DNA of 64,000 nt from Bdellovibrionales bacterium (GTDB lineage Bacteria; Bdellovibrionota; Bdellovibrionia; Bdellovibrionales; UBA1609): assembly GCA_965197855.1 (NCBI GenBank), contig OZ240230.1:1089266-1153265 (forward strand), read 5' to 3'. A program made the position numbers and the translations under genes. Below are positions 46,054-59,062 of this stretch, one piece after another. The notes under the pieces were generated by a model. That model searched no databases, was not told the DNA's origin, and was given only the letters and a program-made list of their open reading frames with translations. The number at the start of each line of letters is the position of its first letter. The stretch's first letter is position 1.

Positions 46054-47823
46054 ATGTCGCAGACTACAAGAAAACAATCACAACATAAAACTGCTTCCAT
46101 GGGTGAGCTTCTTGTTCAAAAGAAAATCATGAGCAAACAGCAGTTGGTAGAACTACAACAAAAGACAGGAGATAATGATAGAAAATTTTTATCTGTTCTA
46201 ACAGATATGGGTTATCTTTCTGAAACAGAAGTTGTATCATTTTTATCTGAACAGTATGGGTATCAAAGCATTGATATTGAAAATTTTGATATTTCTGAAA
46301 ATGTTCTAAAATTAGTACCTCAAAAATTTTGTGAGAAATATACAGTTATTCCTATATCTCGATTAGGAGACACCCTGGTGGTGGCTGTTGCAGATCCTGT
46401 AGATAGTATTTTAAAAGAACAGCTTTTATTTACCACAAAGTGTAAAATAGAATTTGTTTTATCGACGTCTACTGCTATTCGAAATGCGATTAATGCTTTT
46501 TATGCACAAAAGGAAGAGGGGATTCATAAGCTCTTTGCTGAGATTGAAGAATCCAGCATGAAGTTTCAAAAACGTTTAAATGCAGAGGCTGATACTGAAG
46601 ATGAGGAGGAGGCGGCTATTATCCATTTGGATGCCAACGATTCAGAGCCTGTCGTTCGTTTTGTGAATCATGTTATTATCAGTGCTCAAAATAAAAGAGC
46701 TTCTGATATTCACATTGAATCTTATGAGAAAAAATGTCGTGTACGTTTTCGTATTGATGGAAAACTTCATGAAATGTTTCATCCTCCTAAAACAATATCT
46801 CCATATATCATTAGCCGTATGAAAGTGATGTCTAACTTAGATATTGGAGAGCGCCGAAAACCCCAGGATGGACGTTTAAAAGTTAAAATGCAGCAAGGTA
46901 AAGAGTTGGATTTTCGTGTGTCTATTGCTCCTACAGTGAGCGGCGAAAAAATTGTGATGAGGGTTTTGGATGATTCAGCTATTTCTGTTGGTTTTCATGA
47001 TTTGGGTATGACTAAAATAGAGGCTTCTACCTTTCAAGAGGCATTGAATCAGCCTCAAGGTCTTATTCTTATTACAGGCCCTACAGGAAGTGGTAAAACT
47101 ACAACTATTTACTCAGGTTTGAATTTGTTAAATATTCCCGAGAGAAATATTTCAACAGCGGAAGATCCGGTAGAATATAAAATTGAAGGTTTAAATCAAG
47201 TGCAAATGCATGCAAAAATTGGATTAACTTTTGCTTCTGCTTTACGTGCTTTTTTAAGGCAAGATCCGGATGTGATTCTGGTGGGTGAGATTAGGGACTA
47301 TGAGACAGCTGAGATAGCTTTTAAAGCGGCGTCCACAGGGCACTTGGTGGTGAGTACTATTCATACGAATGATACACCATCCACTGTTACCAGGCTGTTG
47401 GATATCGGGATACCAGACTACAGTATAGCTGAAAATATCAGTTTAATTGTTGGGCAAAGGCTATTACGTAGAATATGTTCTCGGTGTATTATGTTAGACA
47501 ATGTCTCAAAGGATTCCTTAAAACAACTCGGATTCTCTGATAGTCAGATGGAAAAAGCTCAAGGAAAGATTAAAAAAGGTAAAGGGTGTCGTGTTTGCTC
47601 TAATATCGGATATAAAGGGAGAGTGGCTGTTTATGAAATGCTTAAAATCACCGATAATATAAAAAAGGGTATATTTGATAAAATGGTTCCTCTGGATTTG
47701 AAAAAACATGCGATAAAATCTGGGGAACTCAAAACACTTAGACGAAGTGGAATAGAGAAAATGATTCAAGGAGTAACAACTTTTGAAGAAGTTTTATATG
47801 GAACAGTAGGAGATTTTCGATGA
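46054..47823 (+). CDS. pilB: Type IV pilus assembly ATPase PilB (GspE family)
   Basis: 589 aa. The N-terminus SMGELLVQKKIMSKQQLVELQQK is MshEN-like, a possible c-di-GMP motif. It has a T2SSE_N domain, Walker A GPTGSGKTTT, the Asp and His boxes, and a tetracysteine motif CSRC...CRVC. Confidence 0.9.
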   Translation: MSQTTRKQSQHKTASMGELLVQKKIMSKQQLVELQQKTGDNDRKFLSVLTDMGYLSETEVVSFLSEQYGYQSIDIENFDISENVLKLVPQKFCEKYTVIPISRLGDTLVVAVADPVDSILKEQLLFTTKCKIEFVLSTSTAIRNAINAFYAQKEEGIHKLFAEIEESSMKFQKRLNAEADTEDEEEAAIIHLDANDSEPVVRFVNHVIISAQNKRASDIHIESYEKKCRVRFRIDGKLHEMFHPPKTISPYIISRMKVMSNLDIGERRKPQDGRLKVKMQQGKELDFRVSIAPTVSGEKIVMRVLDDSAISVGFHDLGMTKIEASTFQEALNQPQGLILITGPTGSGKTTTIYSGLNLLNIPERNISTAEDPVEYKIEGLNQVQMHAKIGLTFASALRAFLRQDPDVILVGEIRDYETAEIAFKAASTGHLVVSTIHTNDTPSTVTRLLDIGIPDYSIAENISLIVGQRLLRRICSRCIMLDNVSKDSLKQLGFSDSQMEKAQGKIKKGKGCRVCSNIGYKGRVAVYEMLKITDNIKKGIFDKMVPLDLKKHAIKSGELKTLRRSGIEKMIQGVTTFEEVLYGTVGDFR

Positions 47824-48909: not shown

Positions 48910-50127
48910 ATGCCTGTATATCAATTTAGAGCCAAAGACCCCAGTAGACGTGTTGTACAAGGTCGCGTTAAGGCAAATTCAAAAGATGAAGTCGAACGTA
49001 AATTAATGTCCAGACAATTGGTGTTAATTAGTGCATCTGTTCAAGATACAAAGAAGTCCTTTAATTTGTTAGAAATAAATATTGGGGGGATTAGTCATAA
49101 AAAAGTTGTTTTGGCCACCCGACAGCTGGCTTTCCTTGTCAAAGCCAGTGTTCCTATTGCTCAAGCTTTGGATATCGTAGGAAAGAATACAGATGATGCT
49201 CCTTTAAGGAAAATTTTTGAAGAGCTTGCTCAAGGTATTATAGCAGGAAAATCTTTTTCTGGTTCATTATCAGCATACCCAAATGTGTTTGATGAATTGT
49301 ATGTGAATATGGTTCGTGCGGGTGAAGAAGGGGGAAGTTTGGATGTTATGTTGAACCAATTAGCTACTTACATTGAGAAAACAGAGAGTATTAAAGGTCG
49401 AGTGAAGTCTTCAATGATGTATCCTGTGTTTGTGGGTATTGTGGCTATTCTTATTGTGATTGGGATGATTGTATATTTGGTTCCAAAGTTTGAAGAAATA
49501 TTTGCAGAAGCGGATCAAGAGCTTCCAGCCGTTACTCAATTGCTTGTGGATGCGAGCGATTTTATGAGAAATAACTCAGTACTGCTCATCATACTAGTGC
49601 TTGGTTTGGGTATTTCTTTTATGATGTTTATTAAGTCAGAATATGGTTGCAGAGTATGGGAAAGATTTTTAACGCACATTCCGGGTCTTGGAAATTTATT
49701 CGTCAAAAATAATGTAGCTCGATTTTCCCGTACTTTATCTTGTTTGTTATCTGCTGGGGGCAATATTGTCGAATCTATTAAAATTGCAGGTAAATCATCC
49801 GGAAGTGTGTTGATGAAAGATGCTTCAGTAAGGGTTTCTGATTCTGTAGAGAGGGGATTTAGACTGGGAAAGTCTCTGGCCAGTGAAAGTATCTTTCCTA
49901 GCTTGATGAGGAATATGATTGTTTCCGGAGAACAGACGGGTAATGTAGATGATATACTTATGAAAATTGCTGAATTTTGTGAAGAGCAAGTGGATGCCGC
50001 TGTCAATGGTATTATTAAGATGATTGAGCCAGTGATGATTGTGGGGGTGGCCTTGGTGATAGGATTTATAATTATTGCTCTTTATTTACCTATTTTCAAA
50101 ATGAGTGGAGCTTTGGCAGCAGGTTAG
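48910..50127 (+). CDS. pilC: Type IV pilus platform protein PilC (T2SSF family)
   Basis: 405 aa with duplicated T2SSF domains. Starts MPVYQFRAKD and ends ...ALYLPIFKMSGALAAG. Confidence 0.9.
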   Translation: MPVYQFRAKDPSRRVVQGRVKANSKDEVERKLMSRQLVLISASVQDTKKSFNLLEINIGGISHKKVVLATRQLAFLVKASVPIAQALDIVGKNTDDAPLRKIFEELAQGIIAGKSFSGSLSAYPNVFDELYVNMVRAGEEGGSLDVMLNQLATYIEKTESIKGRVKSSMMYPVFVGIVAILIVIGMIVYLVPKFEEIFAEADQELPAVTQLLVDASDFMRNNSVLLIILVLGLGISFMMFIKSEYGCRVWERFLTHIPGLGNLFVKNNVARFSRTLSCLLSAGGNIVESIKIAGKSSGSVLMKDASVRVSDSVERGFRLGKSLASESIFPSLMRNMIVSGEQTGNVDDILMKIAEFCEEQVDAAVNGIIKMIEPVMIVGVALVIGFIIIALYLPIFKMSGALAAG

Positions 50128-50128
50128 T

Positions 50129-51160
50129 ATGATGGTAGAGACACTGATTCCTTCTTGGGTTAACATTTTTCGTTCATTATTTCATGTTTCTTTATTTGTT
50201 ATGGGCTTGGCTTATGCTTTTGCTCAACCGTCGTTTTTAAATGCTGAGGTATGGGTGTTTATTTATTCCCTGGCTGGAGTGGCTTTAATTTTTGATGCTC
50301 TTATTTTTATTTTTCAAAAAGAGTTTAAAGCTTGGCCTATTATTTATTGTTTTGATGCTTTGTTTGTTGCTTTAATTATGTACCGCACGGGTTATGTGTT
50401 TTTTGGAGCTTTGTCTTTTATATGGCTTATCCATATTTTATTTGCTGGTTTGCAATTTCAATACAAGGGCTCTCTTTTGCAGGGGCTTTGGACTTCTTGT
50501 GTATTTACTTGGGTTCATTTTATTTCTCCTCACTTTTCATCTATTGATGGAGTCTTTTTTGCCTTCAACAATTTCCTTTTTCTTTTAATGGCTTTTTCAG
50601 CTGGATTTATGGGAACATATTTTTATCAGTGGATTTCTTCATTTCAAAATCTTTATTGGAAGATGCGACGTTCTTTCACTCACCCTCTCCGTCATTTTCA
50701 CTGGGATGCTTTCCTAGATGATGAAGAAGGATCTTCTTCTCATCAGGAAAAATTGAATGTCAATGAGTTAGTGCAAGAGGTGGTAGAGCATATCCATTCA
50801 CAAACAAAATTTCAGTCTGTTCAACATCATCTCTCTGATGTTTCTATTATTTTTGGAGATAGAAGTAAGTTGAAGAGGGTGATTATTAGTTTGATTCAAT
50901 GGTTTTTTCATACTTATAGTGATTTTCAAAAATTGAAAATAAAAACTTATAGTGATGGGTTATGGACTGTTATTCAATTGGAAAAATTAGGAGTGGCTCA
51001 AGCCAAAGAGCCTCTCCAAATTTTTAATTGGCTTAAGGGATTTAATTTAATCCAGAAAGTGATTGAGGAGCATGGGGGTCAGATTGAGGTTTCTAATAAA
51101 ATGAATTCTTTGTATATCCGACTTCCAAGTGGTGAAGATACAACACAACAGGTCAGTTAA
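50129..51160 (+). CDS. PilS-like polytopic membrane sensor with a degenerate kinase core
   Basis: ATG 50129 lies 1 nt after the pilC stop. About six TM segments are followed by a short cytoplasmic part. SFTHPLRHF is a weak H-box-like string. No clear N-box or DxGxG G1 box was seen, although the C-terminus IEEHGGQIEVSNKMNSLYIRLP resembles the end of an HATPase_c domain. Confidence 0.45.
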   Translation: MMVETLIPSWVNIFRSLFHVSLFVMGLAYAFAQPSFLNAEVWVFIYSLAGVALIFDALIFIFQKEFKAWPIIYCFDALFVALIMYRTGYVFFGALSFIWLIHILFAGLQFQYKGSLLQGLWTSCVFTWVHFISPHFSSIDGVFFAFNNFLFLLMAFSAGFMGTYFYQWISSFQNLYWKMRRSFTHPLRHFHWDAFLDDEEGSSSHQEKLNVNELVQEVVEHIHSQTKFQSVQHHLSDVSIIFGDRSKLKRVIISLIQWFFHTYSDFQKLKIKTYSDGLWTVIQLEKLGVAQAKEPLQIFNWLKGFNLIQKVIEEHGGQIEVSNKMNSLYIRLPSGEDTTQQVS

Positions 51161-51161
51161 A

Positions 51162-52433
51162 ATGAAGAATGTGGATGCAACAAAAATGGTTTTGGTTATT
51201 GATGCTGACCCACATATTCACTCTTTGTTTAAAGCCTTATGTCATCAAATATCTATTCCAATCGAATTAACTCTTGCAGATCATTTTGATCGTGCTAAAA
51301 GTTTGTTAAATAACAAAAGTTTTCACGTTGTCATTGCTGATTCAGCTTTGGTTTCTCAAAAGGACTGGGTTTTTTCTATCCCTATTTTGTGGATGGGTGA
51401 TAGATATGGCAAGGATGAGAACTATATTAGAAAGCCTTTTTCCATAACAGATGTTAAAATGAGAATTGAGAAACTTCTTTGTAGTTTCAATAATATAGAA
51501 ATTATAGGGTCATCGATACAACAACTTTTAGATCAAATGGTACAAGTTGCTTCTTACGATACTTCGATTCTTCTGACAGGGGAGAGTGGTACGGGTAAAG
51601 AGTTATTTGCTCGTTTTATCCATCAGAATAGCAAGAGATCTTTAAATAATTTTATAACTGTTCATTGTGGGGCTATTTCAGAAAATTTAATGGAATCAGA
51701 ATTTTTCGGACATAAAAAAGGCAGTTTTACAGGAGCTGTTTCTGATAAAAAAGGTTTTTTTGAGATCTCTCATAAGGGAACTTTGTTTTTAGATGAACTG
51801 GGAGATTTGCCTTTGCATTTACAGGCTAAATTACTTCGTGTTGTTCAAGATAAAAAGGTGCGACCTGTGGGATCATTGGAGGAGTATGAGGTAGACGTAC
51901 GAATTATTTCTGCTACTAATCAAAATTTGGAGCAAATGATTCAAAAACAAATATTTCGTGAAGATTTATTTCATCGTTTAGCGGTCATTTATTTGAATCT
52001 GCCTCCATTAAGAGAAAGAAGAGAGGATATTCCTCTTTTAGCTCAATATTTTTTAGAAAAAAATAAGAAAAATTATAAGAAAAAAAATCTAAAATTTTCC
52101 AAAGAGGCTTTTGAGTATTTACAAGAGTATAAATATCCTGGAAATATTAGAGAGTTGGAAAATATGATTGAAAAAGCTGTTTTGTTTTCTACAGGGGATC
52201 TCATTGATAAGAAAGATTTATCTCTCCGAGAGAACAAAGAGGCAAGCAATGTACTTAATTTTGCATTTCCTTCAGAGGGGATGGACTTAATTCATGTTAT
52301 GCGTCAAGCAGAAAAACAAATCCTTTCGGAAGCTATTCATCGATCCAAGGGGAATCGAGAGGAAGCCGCTCAACTATTGAAAATCACTCCCAGATCCTTG
52401 AAACATCGGATTCATAAATATAAACTAGCTTAA
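51162..52433 (+). CDS. Sigma-54-dependent response regulator (PilR-like)
   Basis: The track start GTG 51129 was replaced by ATG 51162. Receiver (VLVIDADP..., VVIADSAL, IRKPF), AAA+ domain GESGTGKELFARFIH, the GAFTGA variant GSFTGA, and a C-terminal Fis-type HTH (NREEAAQLLKITPRSLKHRIHKY). Confidence 0.8.
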   Translation: MKNVDATKMVLVIDADPHIHSLFKALCHQISIPIELTLADHFDRAKSLLNNKSFHVVIADSALVSQKDWVFSIPILWMGDRYGKDENYIRKPFSITDVKMRIEKLLCSFNNIEIIGSSIQQLLDQMVQVASYDTSILLTGESGTGKELFARFIHQNSKRSLNNFITVHCGAISENLMESEFFGHKKGSFTGAVSDKKGFFEISHKGTLFLDELGDLPLHLQAKLLRVVQDKKVRPVGSLEEYEVDVRIISATNQNLEQMIQKQIFREDLFHRLAVIYLNLPPLRERREDIPLLAQYFLEKNKKNYKKKNLKFSKEAFEYLQEYKYPGNIRELENMIEKAVLFSTGDLIDKKDLSLRENKEASNVLNFAFPSEGMDLIHVMRQAEKQILSEAIHRSKGNREEAAQLLKITPRSLKHRIHKYKLA

Positions 52434-52441
52434 ATAAGCTT

Positions 52442-53713
52442 ATGTTTACTTATTTAAGATATTCATGCTGTCTTTTCTTATTATTTGGCTCATTTTGTGT
52501 CTTATCTGAAAAGCCATTATCCAGAGAGCAGGTTCTTCAAGAACTTTCAAAGGCTTACACACAATCTAAGTATATCAGTAAAGCCAGACTCTATTCCTTA
52601 GAGGTGCGATTAGCTGAAGTTACTTTAGAGAAGGTAAAGGGTATGGAGTTTATTCGAGCTTCTTCTCAGGACTATAGGTTAAAAGATGAGATTATGCAGT
52701 CTATTTATCTTTATAAGAAAGCTTTAAATCGAGTAGACGATGGCGAAGAAAAATCCAAAATTTTATTCCGTATTGGTTATTTATATGAAGTGCTTGCCTC
52801 TTATTCGCAAGCTTTAGATTCTTACAAACAGGTTTTATCTGCTAGTAAAAATCGTAAAAGAATATCGAAAGCTCGTTACTTATCTCGTCAAATGCAAAAA
52901 AATTTGAAAACCAAAGACAAGAAAATAAATGCTATGTATCAGCAGACATCTTCGGAAAAAAAGAGTCCTTTAGAGGATGCTTTATCTAAGACGAGGCACT
53001 ACTTAAGTATTCATCATTGGGACAAAGTTGTACATTATTTTGATAAAGCTTGTCAGCTTTATTTACAAAATCAATCTTGTAATCATAGTTCATGTAAGCA
53101 TTCTCCAGAGGTTATTAAGAGTTTAATTTATACGGCTCATAATGAGAAAGTGAACAAAAATGTTATTCAATTATATAACATTTACCTTTCTTATTTTCCC
53201 ATGGACTCAATTATGGTGTTGTCTGCCGCTGAATGGGCGGCCAGAATGGGTCAATATGATCAATCTTTAAGTTTTTATCAACGTCATATCTTATTTGAAC
53301 AAAGATTTATTAGATTTTATTTAAAAGAAAGTGAAAGAAAGGAGAAATTTATTCATCTTGAGAATTTATTTCATTTATACCACTCTTTAGCTCAGCTTTC
53401 TCAAGATCCACGTTTAGAAATTCAAGCTTATAATTTTTATTTAAAACATAGTGTATTGAGAAAATCGGTCTTTGAAATTCGATACTTAAAAAACAAGGCA
53501 TTATTTCGTATGGGTGAGTATAATCAAACAGCTCCTATATTTCGTGAGATTGCTTTATCCGCTTATCCAGATGAACGTCTGAAAAGTGAAGCCGCTGTTT
53601 TTGCTTTAAGGGCTTTGTTGAAACTTAATCGCGATGTGACTGCTAAAAAATGGGCAGATGAATTTTCTACTTCTTTTCCCGATAAGAGATCTAAGTTTCA
53701 AAAAATTATTTAA
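52442..53713 (+). CDS. Secreted TPR-like repeat protein
   Basis: 423 aa with a signal peptide (CCLFLLFGSFCVLS). Helical repeat segments are present, e.g. LFRIGYLYEVLASYSQALDSYKQVL. Occupies the slot after the pilR-like gene. Confidence 0.4.
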   Translation: MFTYLRYSCCLFLLFGSFCVLSEKPLSREQVLQELSKAYTQSKYISKARLYSLEVRLAEVTLEKVKGMEFIRASSQDYRLKDEIMQSIYLYKKALNRVDDGEEKSKILFRIGYLYEVLASYSQALDSYKQVLSASKNRKRISKARYLSRQMQKNLKTKDKKINAMYQQTSSEKKSPLEDALSKTRHYLSIHHWDKVVHYFDKACQLYLQNQSCNHSSCKHSPEVIKSLIYTAHNEKVNKNVIQLYNIYLSYFPMDSIMVLSAAEWAARMGQYDQSLSFYQRHILFEQRFIRFYLKESERKEKFIHLENLFHLYHSLAQLSQDPRLEIQAYNFYLKHSVLRKSVFEIRYLKNKALFRMGEYNQTAPIFREIALSAYPDERLKSEAAVFALRALLKLNRDVTAKKWADEFSTSFPDKRSKFQKII

Positions 53714-53720
53714 TCATTTA

Positions 53721-55493
53721 TTAAGATACTTTTTTCAATAAACTACCATCTTCATAATAAGAAGATAAAGATTGAACTATTTGTTCAATGGCATGTAGGC
53801 ATTTAATAGGAAGTATACGTGTTTTAGAGATGCCTAAATAAACTCCCAACATATTTTGTTTATTGGTGTCCAAGAAAGGGATAAGCACGACATGTTTAGG
53901 TAGTGTTTCAAAACCCCATTGATTAAAGAAAGAATTATTAGCCAATACTGGAGCTAAGTGTCCAAAATAAGCCTGTTTACTTACATGAACAATACGGAAA
54001 ATAGAGGGTTTTTGGATAGTGCCTTGTGCTTTCTTTTGATCTTGTAAATTAGAACTCCATTTATAAGGTATGTATGCATCTTTTTTGAATACAAAAAGTA
54101 TATAAGAATTTACATAATGCTTTGTTTCTTCTAAAGCTCGCCTGAGAGGGTTGAGTTGATCTAATGAAGTTACTTTCTTTTGGTCCAATATAAGAAAAGA
54201 TCTTGATGTGTTTTGTGTAGAATCCTTTAATTCGTTTTCCACGATCTCTTCTTTTAAGGATGGAGTTGCAGTTGTTGAGGGGATGTTATTTATTTTATCG
54301 TCTTCAGTGTTTAAAGTGATGGGTGCTGGGGCTTCTTCTTTTTCTGAAGAGAAGTCAGAGGAAGTCTTTGGTGGTGGGTTAGTGCCTTCACTTTTTGAAG
54401 CGATAGGTGTTGGGGGTTCTTCTTCTTCTGAAGAAGATGGAGAAAGTTTCTGGGTGGTGGGCGGAGTATTGTCAGATGCATTGTTACTCTCTGTTTCCAA
54501 AGCAATAGGTTTTGGCATGTCGTCTTTTTTATGTTTGTCATGTTTACTTTCTTCACTTTCGTCATTTCCAAGAAAGTTGAGGTCTTCCTTTACTTTGCTA
54601 AGTTTTTCATTATCTTCAGTTGTAAGAGCAATGGGTTTTGGAATTCCATCTGTTTCTGGAAGTGTTTTTTGTGAAACAGAAGGAGTGTTTAATGGTGGCT
54701 TATCATCTTCTGTTTTTAAAGTGATAGGTGTTGGAATTTCATTTTTTTCATTATGTTTTTTTTCTTCTTCTCTACTTTCGTCACTCTCGAGAGAGTGCTG
54801 TACAGATTTCCCTGTACTTTCAATATCTACGATGTTTTGTTTATTATTTCCTATTTTTTTACCTTGTAAATGACGCTTTGTTTTTGAGGAAAGTTTTTTT
54901 TCCGGAGCGATGAAATGGATAAAAGACTTGATGAGGTCACTAAGGAACAACACTATAGATTTCGAGGGATTCATATATTCAAACTCAATACCATCATTAT
55001 CCATTTTTTTTAGGACAGGGTTTTTTGGTGTATTGAGAGTTTTCTCGTTTTGGAGAGGAGGTTGTGGTGTTATTGAGGTCACTTGTTTTTTTTGATGTGA
55101 CTCTTCTTCAGAGGGTTGTATGTTTTGCCATAAGGATTCCATATTCTTAAGCGATGTAATAAAGAAAACTGCTTGTTGACTAGTGTTGATTTGTTGTGGC
55201 TCCAGACAGGCAATATATAGAGTATTATTCCATTCGAAGCAGGGAATAGCTGATGAGGTGGCGATATTTAGTTTTTTAATTTTATCCAAGAAATTTGTCT
55301 CTGATGGATGTTCTGTAAAAAATGCATCTTCCATTATGGGAAGTCTATAATACTTGGAAGCCCATTCCTGATACTCTATCTCGTTAATAAGCTGATTTTT
55401 TAACGCTTCTTTAAGTGTACAGGAAGTTGAGAGTTGAAATTTTTCTTTCCATGCTTCTACAGGGCTCATATACTTAGAATCCTTGTTGATCAT
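53721..55493 (-). CDS. Hypothetical protein: GspE/PilB N-terminal-like domain, P-x-P-I repeat linker and GAF-like C-terminal domain
   Basis: 590 aa. The N-terminal segment LINEIEYQEWASKYYRLPIMEDAFF...SSAIPCFEWNNTLYIACLEPQQ parallels the in-window PilB segment YLSETEVVSFLSEQYGYQSIDIENF...YTVIPISRLGDTLVVAVADPVD. The middle has five PTPITLKTE, PKPIALTTE, PKPIALETE, PTPIASKSE and PAPITLNTE motifs. The C-terminal roughly 150 aa look GAF-like. Confidence 0.45.
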   Translation of the reverse strand: MINKDSKYMSPVEAWKEKFQLSTSCTLKEALKNQLINEIEYQEWASKYYRLPIMEDAFFTEHPSETNFLDKIKKLNIATSSAIPCFEWNNTLYIACLEPQQINTSQQAVFFITSLKNMESLWQNIQPSEEESHQKKQVTSITPQPPLQNEKTLNTPKNPVLKKMDNDGIEFEYMNPSKSIVLFLSDLIKSFIHFIAPEKKLSSKTKRHLQGKKIGNNKQNIVDIESTGKSVQHSLESDESREEEKKHNEKNEIPTPITLKTEDDKPPLNTPSVSQKTLPETDGIPKPIALTTEDNEKLSKVKEDLNFLGNDESEESKHDKHKKDDMPKPIALETESNNASDNTPPTTQKLSPSSSEEEEPPTPIASKSEGTNPPPKTSSDFSSEKEEAPAPITLNTEDDKINNIPSTTATPSLKEEIVENELKDSTQNTSRSFLILDQKKVTSLDQLNPLRRALEETKHYVNSYILFVFKKDAYIPYKWSSNLQDQKKAQGTIQKPSIFRIVHVSKQAYFGHLAPVLANNSFFNQWGFETLPKHVVLIPFLDTNKQNMLGVYLGISKTRILPIKCLHAIEQIVQSLSSYYEDGSLLKKVS

Positions 55494-55568
55494 TTTTGAT
55501 TCTTCTTCTATTTTACAAACGGACTATTTAAACTTGATCTTAAGTAAAATAACATAAGGATAGGATAT

Positions 55569-56741
55569 ATGAGCTTAGAAGTATTCAAAGAATTAAATAG
55601 AGTGTATTTAGATTACAATTCGACGACTCCTATAGCGGGTTTTTTGAACACTGAAATACAAAAATGGCTTCAGTGCTGGGGGAATCCTAGTGCAACCTAT
55701 CAAAAAGCCCGTGAGGCTCGAAGCCTTATTTGGGCGGCACGAGAACAATTAGCAGGGTTTATCCACGTTCGTCCCCTAGAAATCGTTTTTACCAGTGGAG
55801 GGAGTGAATCAAACAATCAGGCTATTAAAGGGCTGGCAGAAAAATTTAAAGATTCATCGAGAAAAAAAATTATTATTTCTTCAGTGGAGCATCCTAGTGT
55901 CACAGGTGTTTGTGAATGGGTCAGAGATTATTATGGTTTTCAATTGGAAGTGATTCCTGTACTAAAGTCAGGACATTTGGATTTGGAAAAATATGAAAAA
56001 GCTTTGGATGATCAAACAGCTTTTGTGTCTATTATGTATGTTAATAATGAAACCGGATGTATATTTCCGATTCAAAAACTGGCTGAGTTGAGTCATAAAG
56101 CAGGAGCTTTATTTCATTCAGATGCGGTTCAAGCTTTAGGAAAAATCCCTTTGGACGTGGAAAGTTTGAATGTTGATTTGCTTAGTTTATCAGGGCATAA
56201 ATTTTATTCTTTGAAAGGATCAGGAGCTTTGTATGTGAGAAGAGGGTTATCTTTGGAAAGTTTGATTCATGGGGGCCCTCAGGAAAGAAAACGAAGAGCT
56301 GGTACAGAAAATATTTTGGCTCTTTGCTCTTTAGGGGCTATGGCCAAAAGGGGTGAAGAGATTTTGAAACAAAACCAAAAAATAGCTCAGTGGCGTGATA
56401 AATTGGAGTCTGTTATTGAAAAATCTTTGAGTGGTGTGAGTTTTATTGGAAAAAATCATCCTCGAGTGGGGACTTGCTCATCTGTTATGATTGAAGGAGT
56501 TTTTGCAGAAACAGTTATGATGAATTTAGATCTTAAGGGGTATTCAGTGAGTGTCAGCTCCGCTTGTCATTCTGGGAGTATTGCCCCTAGTGTGGTTTTA
56601 TTGGGTATGGGGTATTCTCCTGATGAAGCTAAATGTGTTCTTCGGGTCAGTTTTGGTGTAGGAATAGAATGGGAGTCTTTAAAAAAGTTCTCAGATGTTT
56701 TAAAAGAAATTGTAGATAGATTAAGGAATTTAAAGGAATAA
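55569..56741 (+). CDS. Cysteine desulfurase (NifS/IscS family)
   Basis: 390 aa. PLP-Lys region LSLSGHKFY and catalytic Cys region SSACHSG. Directly upstream of mnmA. Confidence 0.85.
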   Translation: MSLEVFKELNRVYLDYNSTTPIAGFLNTEIQKWLQCWGNPSATYQKAREARSLIWAAREQLAGFIHVRPLEIVFTSGGSESNNQAIKGLAEKFKDSSRKKIIISSVEHPSVTGVCEWVRDYYGFQLEVIPVLKSGHLDLEKYEKALDDQTAFVSIMYVNNETGCIFPIQKLAELSHKAGALFHSDAVQALGKIPLDVESLNVDLLSLSGHKFYSLKGSGALYVRRGLSLESLIHGGPQERKRRAGTENILALCSLGAMAKRGEEILKQNQKIAQWRDKLESVIEKSLSGVSFIGKNHPRVGTCSSVMIEGVFAETVMMNLDLKGYSVSVSSACHSGSIAPSVVLLGMGYSPDEAKCVLRVSFGVGIEWESLKKFSDVLKEIVDRLRNLKE

Positions 56742-56745
56742 AATT

Positions 56746-57816
56746 ATGAAGCGTGTACTTGTTGCAATGAGTGGAGGGGTGGATAGTTCTGTTGCTGCGG
56801 CTTTACTTTTAGATCAGGGGTATGAAGTGATTGGTGTGACCATGCAGGTGTGGGACTATTCTGATAAAGATTGTGAAGAAGGCTTTGGAACCTGTTGTTC
56901 GAGTGTTGATGTAGAAGATGCCAGAAGAGTTGCTCAGATATTGAATATTCCATTTTATGTGATTAATTGTGAGTCAGAATTTAAGGAAAAAGTCATTGAT
57001 CCTTTTATGGATTCTTATCAAAAAGGGGAGACCCCTATTCCTTGTTTAAATTGTAATACACATCTTAAATTTCATTATTTAGTTCAAAAAATGAAAGAGT
57101 TGGAATGTGATTTTCTGGCGACGGGACACTATGCAAAAGTGGAAAATCAAGAGGGGAAATGGAAAATTTATCAAAGTGAGGATAGCTGGAAAGATCAAAC
57201 TTATTTTCTTTTTACCACTCCTTTACGCTTATTGCCGCAATTGCTTTTTCCTGTGGGGGGCATGGATAAGTCGGTCATTAGACGTATTGCAAAAGAAAAA
57301 AAACTTCCTGTCTTTGATAAGAAAGATTCAACAGGGCTTTGCTTTATTGGTAAAAGTGGCTATGTTAAATTTATAGATCGTCATCAGGAAGAAGAAGTTA
57401 AAGGAGAGTTAAAATTATACCCATCTGGAGAAACCTTAGGTGTTCACAGCGGTATTCATCAATTTACATATGGTCAAAGAAAAAGATTGGGCGTGTCTTA
57501 TAAGCATCCCCTTTATGTTATTAAAATAGATTCTGCTAATAAATCTGTGTGGTTGGGTGAAGAACATTTCTTATATAAAAATCAGGCAGAAGTTGAAAAC
57601 TTACACTGGCTGGATACTGTTTTACCTGGAGAAAGGTTAAAAGTTAAAATTCGCTTTGGCCATCAAGCTCAATGGGCTCGTGTTTATCCTAAAAGTTCTC
57701 GGTGTTTTATTGAATTTGAAGAGCCGCAAAGGGCTGTAACACCAGGGCAGTCTGCAGTCATTTATAGAACGAAACAACTGATTGGAGGAGGAATTATTTG
57801 TGGGTTACACGATTAA
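56746..57816 (+). CDS. mnmA: tRNA 2-thiouridine(34) synthase MnmA
   Basis: PP-loop VAMSGGVDSSVAA, and ATGHYA and DQTYFL are present. Confidence 0.9.
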   Translation: MKRVLVAMSGGVDSSVAAALLLDQGYEVIGVTMQVWDYSDKDCEEGFGTCCSSVDVEDARRVAQILNIPFYVINCESEFKEKVIDPFMDSYQKGETPIPCLNCNTHLKFHYLVQKMKELECDFLATGHYAKVENQEGKWKIYQSEDSWKDQTYFLFTTPLRLLPQLLFPVGGMDKSVIRRIAKEKKLPVFDKKDSTGLCFIGKSGYVKFIDRHQEEEVKGELKLYPSGETLGVHSGIHQFTYGQRKRLGVSYKHPLYVIKIDSANKSVWLGEEHFLYKNQAEVENLHWLDTVLPGERLKVKIRFGHQAQWARVYPKSSRCFIEFEEPQRAVTPGQSAVIYRTKQLIGGGIICGLHD

Positions 57817-59062
57817 AACTTTTGGATGTAAAGTAAATACATATGATACTTCTCTTTTGCAAAAAGGTTTATCTCCCATAAAAAGCTCTTTGCGATATCA
57901 TATTATTAACACATGTGCAGTGACTGAAAATGCTATACTAGATTCCCTTAGATGGATTCGAAGCTATAGGAGAAAGAATCCACAGGATGTTATTGTTGTG
58001 ACAGGCTGTGGGAGTCAGGTGGAATTGGATCGCTATAGTCAAAGTCCGGACGTTCATTTAATTATAGGTAATTCTCATAAACATCAGCTCCCGGATATTT
58101 TAAAACAATATGAAGACGGTTCTTTGAAAGAACGTATTTTTCATTCCAACATTTTTAAAAATGCCCCATTAGGCGAGGGAGGTCAGGTTGAAAAGGATCA
58201 TACTAGGTTTTTCCTGAAGATTCAGGATGGATGTTCACAATTTTGCACTTTTTGTATTATCCCATTTGCACGCGGTAAGAGTCGTAGTTTAAGTATTTCC
58301 CATTTGGTGGATCAAATTAATGATAAGCATTCTCAGGGCGTTTCTGAGGTGGTTCTAACAGGGGTGCATATTGGGGATTATCAGGATCAACAAAGGAATT
58401 TATATGATTTAGTTTCTGAAATTTTAAAAAAAACAAAAATACCTCGTATTCGCTTAAGTAGTTTGGAGCCTATTGAATTGAGTGATTTACTGCTATCTCT
58501 CTATCAAGATGAGAGGGTGTGCCGACATTTTCATTTAAGTATTCAAAGTGGCTCTACAAAAATTCTTAGAAATATGAAAAGAAATTACACTCGTACAGAT
58601 GTTCAAAAATGTTTAGATAAGATTTATAAAAACACACCGAATGCTTTTGTGGGTATGGATCTTATTGCGGGGTTTCCAGGTGAAACTCAAAAAGACTTTG
58701 AGGATACCTATGAATTATTTAAGGACAATTATTGGACTCAGATGCATGTCTTTCCTTATAGTGCCAGACCTAAAACTTATGCTCTCCGAATGGATCATCA
58801 TTGTTCACATAGTGATAAGACAAAAAGAGCATTACTCCTTAGAAATTTAAGTCATCAAAGATTTCATGAGCAAGCTCAATTACAAATTGGAAAAATTAAA
58901 AAAATCCTTCCTTTACACAAAGGAGGTATCAGTCGTGATTATTGGAATGTGTATTTTGAGGAAGAACAACCTGTTTCGAATCACGAAGTATTTGTCAAAC
59001 TTCTCTCGTGGAATTCACATAAGAACCAATTTCAAGGAATAATGAGTGATGCGTTGGCTTAG
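57800..59062 (+). CDS. mtaB: Radical-SAM methylthiotransferase, MtaB-like (MiaB/RimO family)
   Basis: GGAGGAGG (57785..57792) lies 7 nt before GTG 57800. TFGCKVNTYDT (UPF0004 Cys), a radical-SAM CSQFCTFC motif and a size of about 420 aa fit MtaB. Overlaps the mnmA 3' end. Confidence 0.7.
   Translation: MGYTIKTFGCKVNTYDTSLLQKGLSPIKSSLRYHIINTCAVTENAILDSLRWIRSYRRKNPQDVIVVTGCGSQVELDRYSQSPDVHLIIGNSHKHQLPDILKQYEDGSLKERIFHSNIFKNAPLGEGGQVEKDHTRFFLKIQDGCSQFCTFCIIPFARGKSRSLSISHLVDQINDKHSQGVSEVVLTGVHIGDYQDQQRNLYDLVSEILKKTKIPRIRLSSLEPIELSDLLLSLYQDERVCRHFHLSIQSGSTKILRNMKRNYTRTDVQKCLDKIYKNTPNAFVGMDLIAGFPGETQKDFEDTYELFKDNYWTQMHVFPYSARPKTYALRMDHHCSHSDKTKRALLLRNLSHQRFHEQAQLQIGKIKKILPLHKGGISRDYWNVYFEEEQPVSNHEVFVKLLSWNSHKNQFQGIMSDALA

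Follow-up and report, generated by a model that had tools for sequence, protein, structure and literature searches.

The locus and its product

We analysed a stretch of 64,000 nucleotides from a Bdellovibrionales bacterium (NCBI GenBank assembly GCA_965197855.1, contig OZ240230.1, positions 1,089,266 to 1,153,265; this whole stretch is hereafter the window), and in it the reverse-strand open reading frame (ORF) at 53721..55493. The encoded protein joins known folds in a new architecture that is widespread within its lineage. It comprises a head that profile comparisons relate to the MshEN/T2SSE_N domain of pilus and secretion ATPases, a long disordered tether, and a C-terminal domain predicted to adopt the GAF fold.

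The gene lies at the end of an array with the order ribF, pilB, pilT, pilC, a 351-residue ORF, a sigma-54 activator and a TPR protein. It is convergent with the TPR gene, whose end at 53713 leaves 7 nt between the two, so that the tail-to-tail position described in an earlier reading of the sequence is correct. Divergently transcribed on the other side are genes for a NifS/IscS-like cysteine desulfurase, MnmA and MtaB (Table 1), followed by those for RNase III and Der.

The frame is indeed open for 590 codons, as that reading had it, and the expressed product is more likely to have 582 residues. We place the start at M9 (position 55469), with the first eight codons probably untranslated, because an identical database protein (P0001) has 582 residues, because the full-length homologues all begin at the equivalent of M9 (MSP(I/V)EAWKEKF), and because the eight-codon extension in L001, one of two GTDB genomes with close relatives, contains an in-frame TGA and stops after six of its codons. 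The first ATG of the long frame, in the segment 55470–55493, falls within a conserved non-coding block. A 221-residue ORF on the opposite strand (54208..54873, forward) was rejected as a gene and is regarded as an antisense shadow frame of the low-complexity repeat region.

Table 1. Features of the locus in window coordinates; residue numbers are those of the 590-residue frame.
Feature	Residues	Positions	Strand	Basis or remark
Gene as most likely expressed	582 aa, from M9 of the 590-aa ORF	53721..55469	(-)	M9 start
Diverged MshEN/T2SSE_N-type N-domain	~10-128	55110..55466	(-)	pLDDT ~95, hhalign, TIGR02538
Clade-specific conserved segment	~165-225	54819..55001	(-)	NDGIEFEY, amphipathic/hydrophobic helix 176-196, polybasic patch
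Acidic Ser/Thr/Pro-rich disordered tether	~240-432	54198..54776	(-)	pLDDT <55, no secondary structure
Motif copy 1, PTPITLKTE	254-262	54708..54734	(-)	
Motif copy 2, PKPIALTTE	285-293	54615..54641	(-)	
Motif copy 3, PKPIALETE	327-335	54489..54515	(-)	
Motif copy 4, PTPIASKSE	361-369	54387..54413	(-)	
Motif copy 5, PAPITLNTE	389-397	54303..54329	(-)	
C-terminal GAF-fold domain	~441-590	53724..54173	(-)	pLDDT ~95, Foldseek, conservation
74-nt intergenic block, shared with the divergent cysteine desulfurase gene		55477..55550	n/a	presumed regulatory
NifS/IscS-like cysteine desulfurase (conserved divergent neighbour)		55569-56741	(+)	Pfam, NCBIfam
MnmA (conserved divergent neighbour)		56746-57816	(+)	Pfam, NCBIfam
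MtaB		57782-59062	(+)	after MnmA; Pfam, NCBIfam

A diverged MshEN/T2SSE_N-type head

In an AlphaFold model of the full-length protein, built on a 118-sequence family alignment, two domains are predicted with confidence (residues ~10–130 and ~440–590, each with a predicted local distance difference test score, pLDDT, of ~95), and the middle is disordered. The first domain consists of helices 11–19, 27–32, 38–49, 56–61 and 66–75, strands 82–88, 91–96 and 107–112, and a last helix 115–125. Like MshEN_C of V. cholerae MshE, it thus runs from helices through a three-stranded antiparallel sheet to a closing helix.

The family alignment of this domain (132 sequences) was compared by hhalign with a template of eight MshEN domains, taken from the PilB proteins of the window, L001, the second GTDB genome L002, Geobacter (two) and Myxococcus, and from two Thermus PilF proteins. 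The two align with a probability of 91.9% (P 7e-7) over 89 columns, which span PilB residues ~42–144 and include the second helical motif, the three-stranded sheet and the closing helix. All controls, namely the reversed template, 30 column-shuffled templates and two cross-comparisons with the family GAF alignment, stayed at or below 1.5%. In addition, the NCBIfam PilB model TIGR02538 gives a weak match collinear with the start of PilB (residues 16–111 against profile positions 21–113, E 0.008); its 14.8 bits compare with a cut-off of 675.65 for a full-length PilB. The reverse comparison, with a hidden Markov model of the family, gives individual PilB N-domains 14–21 bits.

The likeness to the T2SSE_N domain of the neighbouring PilB, which the original prediction had drawn from patterns of residues, therefore stands at the profile level only. 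BLASTP of the N-terminus against that PilB is not significant (E 1.2), and identity to PilB N-domains is ~18%. PF05157 finds no match in the protein even at E<=10, whereas the neighbouring PilB scores 71.9 bits. A PDB sequence-profile search with the close N-domain alignment gave nothing significant, and a homologue search seeded with the PilB N-terminus returned almost nothing; with a 50-sequence full-length alignment, the PilB entry 5tsg was aligned across the entire N-domain, only at E 0.5. The family N-domain also has invariant residues of its own (Tyr41, Trp44, Ala45, Pro84, Trp88 and Cys96). With hhalign, TIGR02538 and the order of secondary structure in agreement, the head (residues ~15–125) is, as judged by these comparisons, homologous to the MshEN/T2SSE_N domain with which PilB, MshE and GspE begin, though strongly diverged from it.

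The cyclic di-GMP (c-di-GMP) site of MshEN is formed by a pair of motifs, each of 24 residues, RLGxxL(L/V/I)xxG(L/V/I)(L/V/I)xxxxLxxxLxxQ, with five residues between them. Neither is recognizable in the head. In the hhalign alignment motif I, the first helical hairpin, has no counterpart in the family, and the R, G, G and Q positions of motif II are occupied by C, L, Q and Y. The relaxed search pattern of Wang et al. 2016 (PMC5013675) is absent from the protein and turns up in a single one of the 157 family members, where its site is not homologous, while the positive controls from Geobacter, Myxococcus and Thermus were detected. The NCBIfam model NF053729 has no match in the protein.

No ATPase follows the head. 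Walker A and B motifs are absent by regular-expression search and the T2SSE domain of Pfam has no match, in keeping with the earlier statement that the protein lacks Walker motifs altogether. Across the whole protein, scans with Pfam (best match E 0.1) and NCBIfam returned nothing above threshold. On this sequence evidence the head has lost both c-di-GMP-binding motifs and stands without an ATPase. As it falls short of the Pfam threshold and has neither the c-di-GMP motifs nor an ATPase, it should be classified neither as PilB-type nor as a receptor for c-di-GMP.

As a separate observation, the PilB of the same window (46054–47823) passes the TIGR02538 cut-off, and its MshEN domain lacks the relaxed pattern: SMG and KFL replace RLG. 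It scores 28.6 bits against the NCBIfam c-di-GMP-motif model, under the cut-off of 38, and may not bind c-di-GMP in the canonical way.

The C-terminal GAF domain

The second confident domain was compared with the PDB by Foldseek, which returned 53 matches at E<=1e-3. The best 50 of these 53, to which the following values refer, are all GAF-fold domains, with E-values from 3.8e-5 and template-modelling scores (TM-scores), normalized to the target, of up to 0.70. The top matches include the GAF domain of a Bacillus halodurans sensor kinase (3o5y, target TM-score 0.70). Others belong to DevS/DosS, the cAMP-GAF of Lcd1, cyanobacteriochromes, phosphodiesterases 2A, 6 and 10A, PtsP and fRMsr. Because the best 50 of the 53 matches have this fold, the GAF-like C-terminus proposed earlier is confirmed at the level of the model, and the tail (residues ~441–590) is, by its predicted structure, a GAF domain. 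In this fold the N- and C-terminal helices pack against one face of a central antiparallel sheet, and the other face is covered by a helix/loop segment that shapes the pocket. Sequence methods see little of it: the Pfam GAF models PF01590, PF13185 and PF13492 have no match in the protein, and PDB sequence-profile searches with close and wide alignments of the domain found nothing significant. A model of the C-domain built from nine close sequences only had a pLDDT of 36.5.

The most conserved stretch of the domain reads PSIFRIV..SKQ.YFGH......NN.FF..WGF..LP.H, and the strongest conservation across the family is PS.FRIV..(S/T)K.PY(H/F)G.....N..FF..WG...LP.H. This conservation, at residues 496–540, maps to helix 498–505, strand 509–511 and helix 517–525, the segment by which the ligand pocket is closed in known GAF domains. 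As the pocket segment is the most conserved part, we infer that the domain may bind a small-molecule ligand. GAF domains that bind cyclic nucleotides carry an NKFDE-type signature, N[KR]...F...DE. Regular-expression search found it neither in the protein nor in any of the 157 family members, so that cyclic-nucleotide binding, which had been put forward for this domain, is without sequence support.

The disordered tether

Between the two domains the model shows disorder over roughly residues 130–440. The linker of about 160 residues described earlier is acidic, Ser/Pro-rich and repeat-bearing, as stated, and lies within a disordered region that is longer. Residues 241–440 carry a net charge of -17, with 11.5% Pro, 22% Ser+Thr and 21.5% Asp+Glu, and hold five copies of a nine-residue motif, P-x-P-I-[AT]-[LS]-x-[TS]-E (Table 1). 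In 20,000 composition-preserving shuffles of the linker no more than one copy was ever produced. The copies differ by synonymous codons under the same residues; copies 2 and 3, for example, share eight of nine residues and differ in four codons. Tandem Repeats Finder does not see the copies as a DNA tandem repeat, and its sole weak match is a 9-nt array at 54546–54568, outside them. Orthologues retain PTPIAL copies in variable number. By these sequence criteria the PxPI(A/T)L repeats are a dispersed and selected short linear motif. Only the closest subfamily has the motif, and it is missing from the linkers of 40–70 residues that many other members carry; we therefore regard the repeats as a lineage-specific addition and not as the core function of the family.

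N-terminal to the repeats lies a conserved segment (residues ~165–225) that is kept in 12 close homologues, with Glu170 and Lys189 invariant. Segments of this kind, an NDGIEFEY motif followed by a helix and a polybasic patch, occur only in the clade of the window, down to roughly 30% identity. AlphaFold predicts helix 176–194 at low confidence, and the helix at 176–196 contains the most hydrophobic 19-mer of the protein (mean Kyte–Doolittle value 1.54), with Asp, Lys and His inside it. Together with the polybasic patch it is possibly a peripheral membrane-binding element. A transmembrane helix at this position was considered and rejected, given the charged and polar residues inside it, the polybasic patch after it, the lack of a signal peptide, and the lack of the segment in most family members.

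A large unnamed family

With the whole protein as query, a word-indexed search gave 12 relatives. When the query was a profile of the last 169 residues, an exhaustive search gave at least 452 representatives of clusters at 50% identity (E<=1e-3; 70 at E<=1e-10), with the match always at the C-terminus of proteins of about 300–940 residues; a homologue search with the wide C-domain alignment returned almost nothing. Local iteration with hidden Markov models located both domains in 132 of 157 retrieved proteins, the others being mostly short or without the N-terminal region. Head and tail are separated by a spacer of 34 to 667 residues (median 190; 12% Pro and 15% Asp+Glu). Where members carry a name it is 'hypothetical protein', and the labelled sources are metagenome-assembled genomes of Bdellovibrionales, Bdellovibrionaceae, Pseudobdellovibrionaceae and, once, Pseudomonadota.

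A Pfam scan of 50 members gave one marginal MshEN match (E 0.0056), one marginal GAF_2 match (E 0.0049) and little else, and no Pfam or NCBIfam model covers the arrangement of head, tether and GAF domain above threshold. Our literature search found no description of a protein with an MshEN-like and a GAF domain, or of this family. A sizeable family, with at least those 452 clusters sharing the GAF domain, has thus been missed by current domain libraries, though both of its ends belong to well-known superfamilies.

We note that one homologue, P0009, has repeated hydrophobic stretches (LLLQRLWLWIQMIIISLKK) and a scrambled C-terminus. The stretches resemble the acidic repeats in another frame, which suggests a frameshift or an assembly artefact in the metagenomic contig.

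Conserved gene neighbourhood

L001 and L002 are collinear with the window and keep the pil neighbourhood. Ten more distant loci with context were compared (L003, L004, L005, L007, L008, L009, L010, L011, L012 and L013). None has pilB, pilT or pilC within 7–10 kb of the family member, so that the conserved linkage to pilus genes, which had been set beforehand as a test of the pilus proposal, is confined to the window, L001 and L002. All ten have an Aminotran_5 desulfurase and MnmA on the divergent side, usually accompanied by a MiaB/MtaB-like gene. In six loci the family member and the desulfurase are immediate neighbours, with a spacer of 75–260 nt; in the other four a single gene lies between them. 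On the opposite side the neighbours differ between loci (YceG, rpsL-rpsG-fusA, argininosuccinate genes, LplA and, most commonly, a convergent TsaE). The adjacency to pilBTC is therefore specific to the lineage of the window, a local accident with no conserved link, and the conserved genomic partner is the divergent NifS/IscS-like desulfurase-MnmA-MtaB cluster. The region as a whole is a housekeeping backbone, with rnc, era, der, tsaE, glmM, cdaA and ftsH nearby.

The 74-nt block between the gene and the divergent desulfurase gene does not differ among the window, L001 and L002, and the 85 nt upstream of the gene are 94–95% identical, as against 72–78% for the flanking coding DNA. In L004 the block is about 76% identical, against 55–64% for flanking coding DNA. 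It matches no Rfam family, has neither a stable RNA fold nor a sigma-70 consensus, and is probably a shared control region that acts at the DNA level.

In most of the distant loci (L005, L010, L011, L012 and L013) tsaE is convergent downstream, followed by nnr (YjeF), glmM, ybbR, cdaA and ftsH. With the tsaE side and the mnmA/mtaB side taken together, the family gene is flanked by two clusters in which tRNA-modification genes abound. Two of these loci, L005 (4466–6616) and L011 (4866–6938), have an inserted, unannotated gene of 690–716 residues, without a Pfam match, between the family member and the desulfurase.

A putative ligand-sensing adaptor

From the domain types, we favour the reading that the protein is a soluble, non-enzymatic, ligand-sensing signalling adaptor or scaffold, to which we assign a probability of roughly 0.55. 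The GAF domain would bind a small molecule, and the MshEN-like head would serve for docking to proteins, in the way GspE engages GspL through its N1 domain. The tether, whose length and sequence vary freely across the family, would keep both ends flexibly connected; in this lineage it could also offer multivalent docking sites and, possibly, proximity to the membrane. Its target may be the pilus platform or the sulfur/tRNA-thiolation cluster, or lie elsewhere.

Several points weigh against this reading. In the structure search the Foldseek listing was taken up by GAF matches and gave no confirmation of the N-domain fold, and neither domain reaches the gathering thresholds of Pfam; among the 50 scanned relatives, MshEN and GAF_2 were each touched once, at E ~0.005. 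The taxonomic range rests on a few labels of metagenome-assembled genomes. Finally, the conserved neighbourhood lies in a housekeeping backbone and may carry no functional meaning.

This last point bears also on a second reading, that the protein is functionally coupled to desulfurase-MnmA-MtaB as a metabolite-sensing regulator or as a sulfur-delivery partner for tRNA thiolation. The divergent arrangement beside the desulfurase and MnmA genes recurs in the window, L001, L002 and all ten distant loci, whereas the opposite flank changes between TPR/pil, YceG, rpsL, TsaE and other genes, and conservation in the shared intergenic block exceeds that of the surrounding coding DNA. However, the adjacency may be no more than inherited gene order, and in four loci another gene separates the pair. 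Moreover, Pfam, NCBIfam and AlphaFold give no indication of a DNA-binding domain, and no link between either fold and sulfur-relay proteins is known. As the linkage lies in a housekeeping backbone, the coupling is kept as a rival hypothesis and not drawn as a conclusion, and we consider it unlikely.

Somewhat less probable is a new class of ligand-gated adaptors of predatory, Bdellovibrio-like bacteria, in which the GAF domain reads a metabolite, possibly related to sulfur or cysteine, and the head, a docking domain repurposed from secretion ATPases, controls either tRNA thiolation by way of desulfurase-MnmA-MtaB or the pilus platform, with the conserved intergenic block as part of the circuit.

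Bdellovibrio requires type IV pili for predation, in line with a reading of the protein as a dedicated regulator of the type IVa pilus motor or as its decoy; a role of this kind was suggested by the original prediction from the position of the gene. Under GAF control, the head would compete for, or bridge, the partners of the PilB N1 domain at the PilM/PilC platform. Its homology to the N-terminal domain of PilB and its tail-to-tail arrangement, at a distance of 7 nt, with the gene for the TPR protein closing the pilB-pilT-pilC array of the window, L001 and L002 are consistent with such a role, and non-ATPase regulators of PilB do exist, such as PilZ, FimX and FimW (reviewed in PMC11656802). 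The argument from linkage fails, because pilB, pilT and pilC are absent within 7–10 kb in all ten distant loci, and the convergent orientation places the gene outside the pil operon. The low identity to PilB N-domains and the invariant residues proper to the family suggest a different partner surface, and MshEN domains occur also in non-pilus proteins, such as the glycosyltransferase NfrB (PMC10118264). We therefore regard the pilus role as doubtful; a tempting guilt-by-association call is corrected here, with the pilus neighbourhood being lineage-specific and the tRNA-thiolation cluster being the conserved neighbour.

Least probable of all is a scaffold or hub at the cell pole or close to the membrane, analogous to PopZ, HubP/FimV or RomR, in which repeated motifs in the disordered region would recruit clients: the hypervariable, Pro-rich and acidic linkers, the PxPIAL motifs under selection at the peptide level, and the amphipathic helix with its polybasic patch in the clade of the window would suit it, but the idea is purely one of architectural analogy, and since many members have motif-free linkers of 40–70 residues, scaffolding by the linker cannot be the core function of the family.

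Comparison with known systems

At the profile level, residues ~22–125 of the protein are homologous to the MshEN/T2SSE_N domain (PF05157) of PilB, MshE, PilF and GspE. Unlike these ATPases, it has no ATPase domains, no Walker motifs and no motif I, has lost R, G, G and Q from motif II, falls under the Pfam threshold, and continues after the head with a disordered tether and a GAF domain. The use of MshEN outside secretion ATPases as a regulatory module has precedents in E. coli NfrB, a glycosyltransferase with a C-terminal MshEN (PMC10118264), and in B. bacteriovorus Bd2402, a response regulator containing MshEN (Wang et al. 2016, PMC5013675). Those proteins bind c-di-GMP through the conserved motifs, which the present protein lacks, and their partner domain is a glycosyltransferase (NfrB) or a receiver (Bd2402) instead of a GAF domain. 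The MshEN architectures named in the consulted passages of Wang et al. 2016 are with an ATPase, a glycosyltransferase or a response regulator, none with GAF (PMC5013675). Here, the N-terminal module of PilB and GspE appears to persist without the ATPase and without the c-di-GMP site, which bears on the poorly understood N1 domain as a docking unit.

The C-terminal domain shares its predicted fold with GAF domains of sensor kinases, phosphodiesterases, cyanobacteriochromes and PtsP (3o5y, 2vks, 5w10 and 3trc). Over 140–160 aligned columns in the best 50 of the 53 matches, E-values range from 4e-5 to 1e-3 and target TM-scores from 0.5 to 0.7, with identities of 8–16% to PDB GAF domains, no Pfam GAF match and no NKFDE signature. 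Unlike in those proteins, the domain is the C-terminal one and has no attached output enzyme.

PilZ, FimX and FimW are small non-ATPase cofactors of PilB that tune pilus extension (PMC11656802), and this is the kind of role that had first been proposed; the comparisons made here give no relation to them in sequence or fold. Those cofactors are linked to c-di-GMP, whereas the present protein has no recognizable c-di-GMP sites and its linkage to pil genes is not conserved. For Bdellovibrio biology the protein is a concrete candidate, of putative role, for screens of ligand, partner and localization.

Within the pil array of the window, the 351-residue ORF between pilC and the sigma-54 activator (50105–51160) has no Pfam domain and a weak similarity to the C-terminus of AtoS-type histidine kinases (E 1.8e-4), and no receiver domain is detectable in the first ~120 residues of the sigma-54 activator itself (51129–52433). 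The 'PilS/PilR' pair of this locus is therefore atypical.

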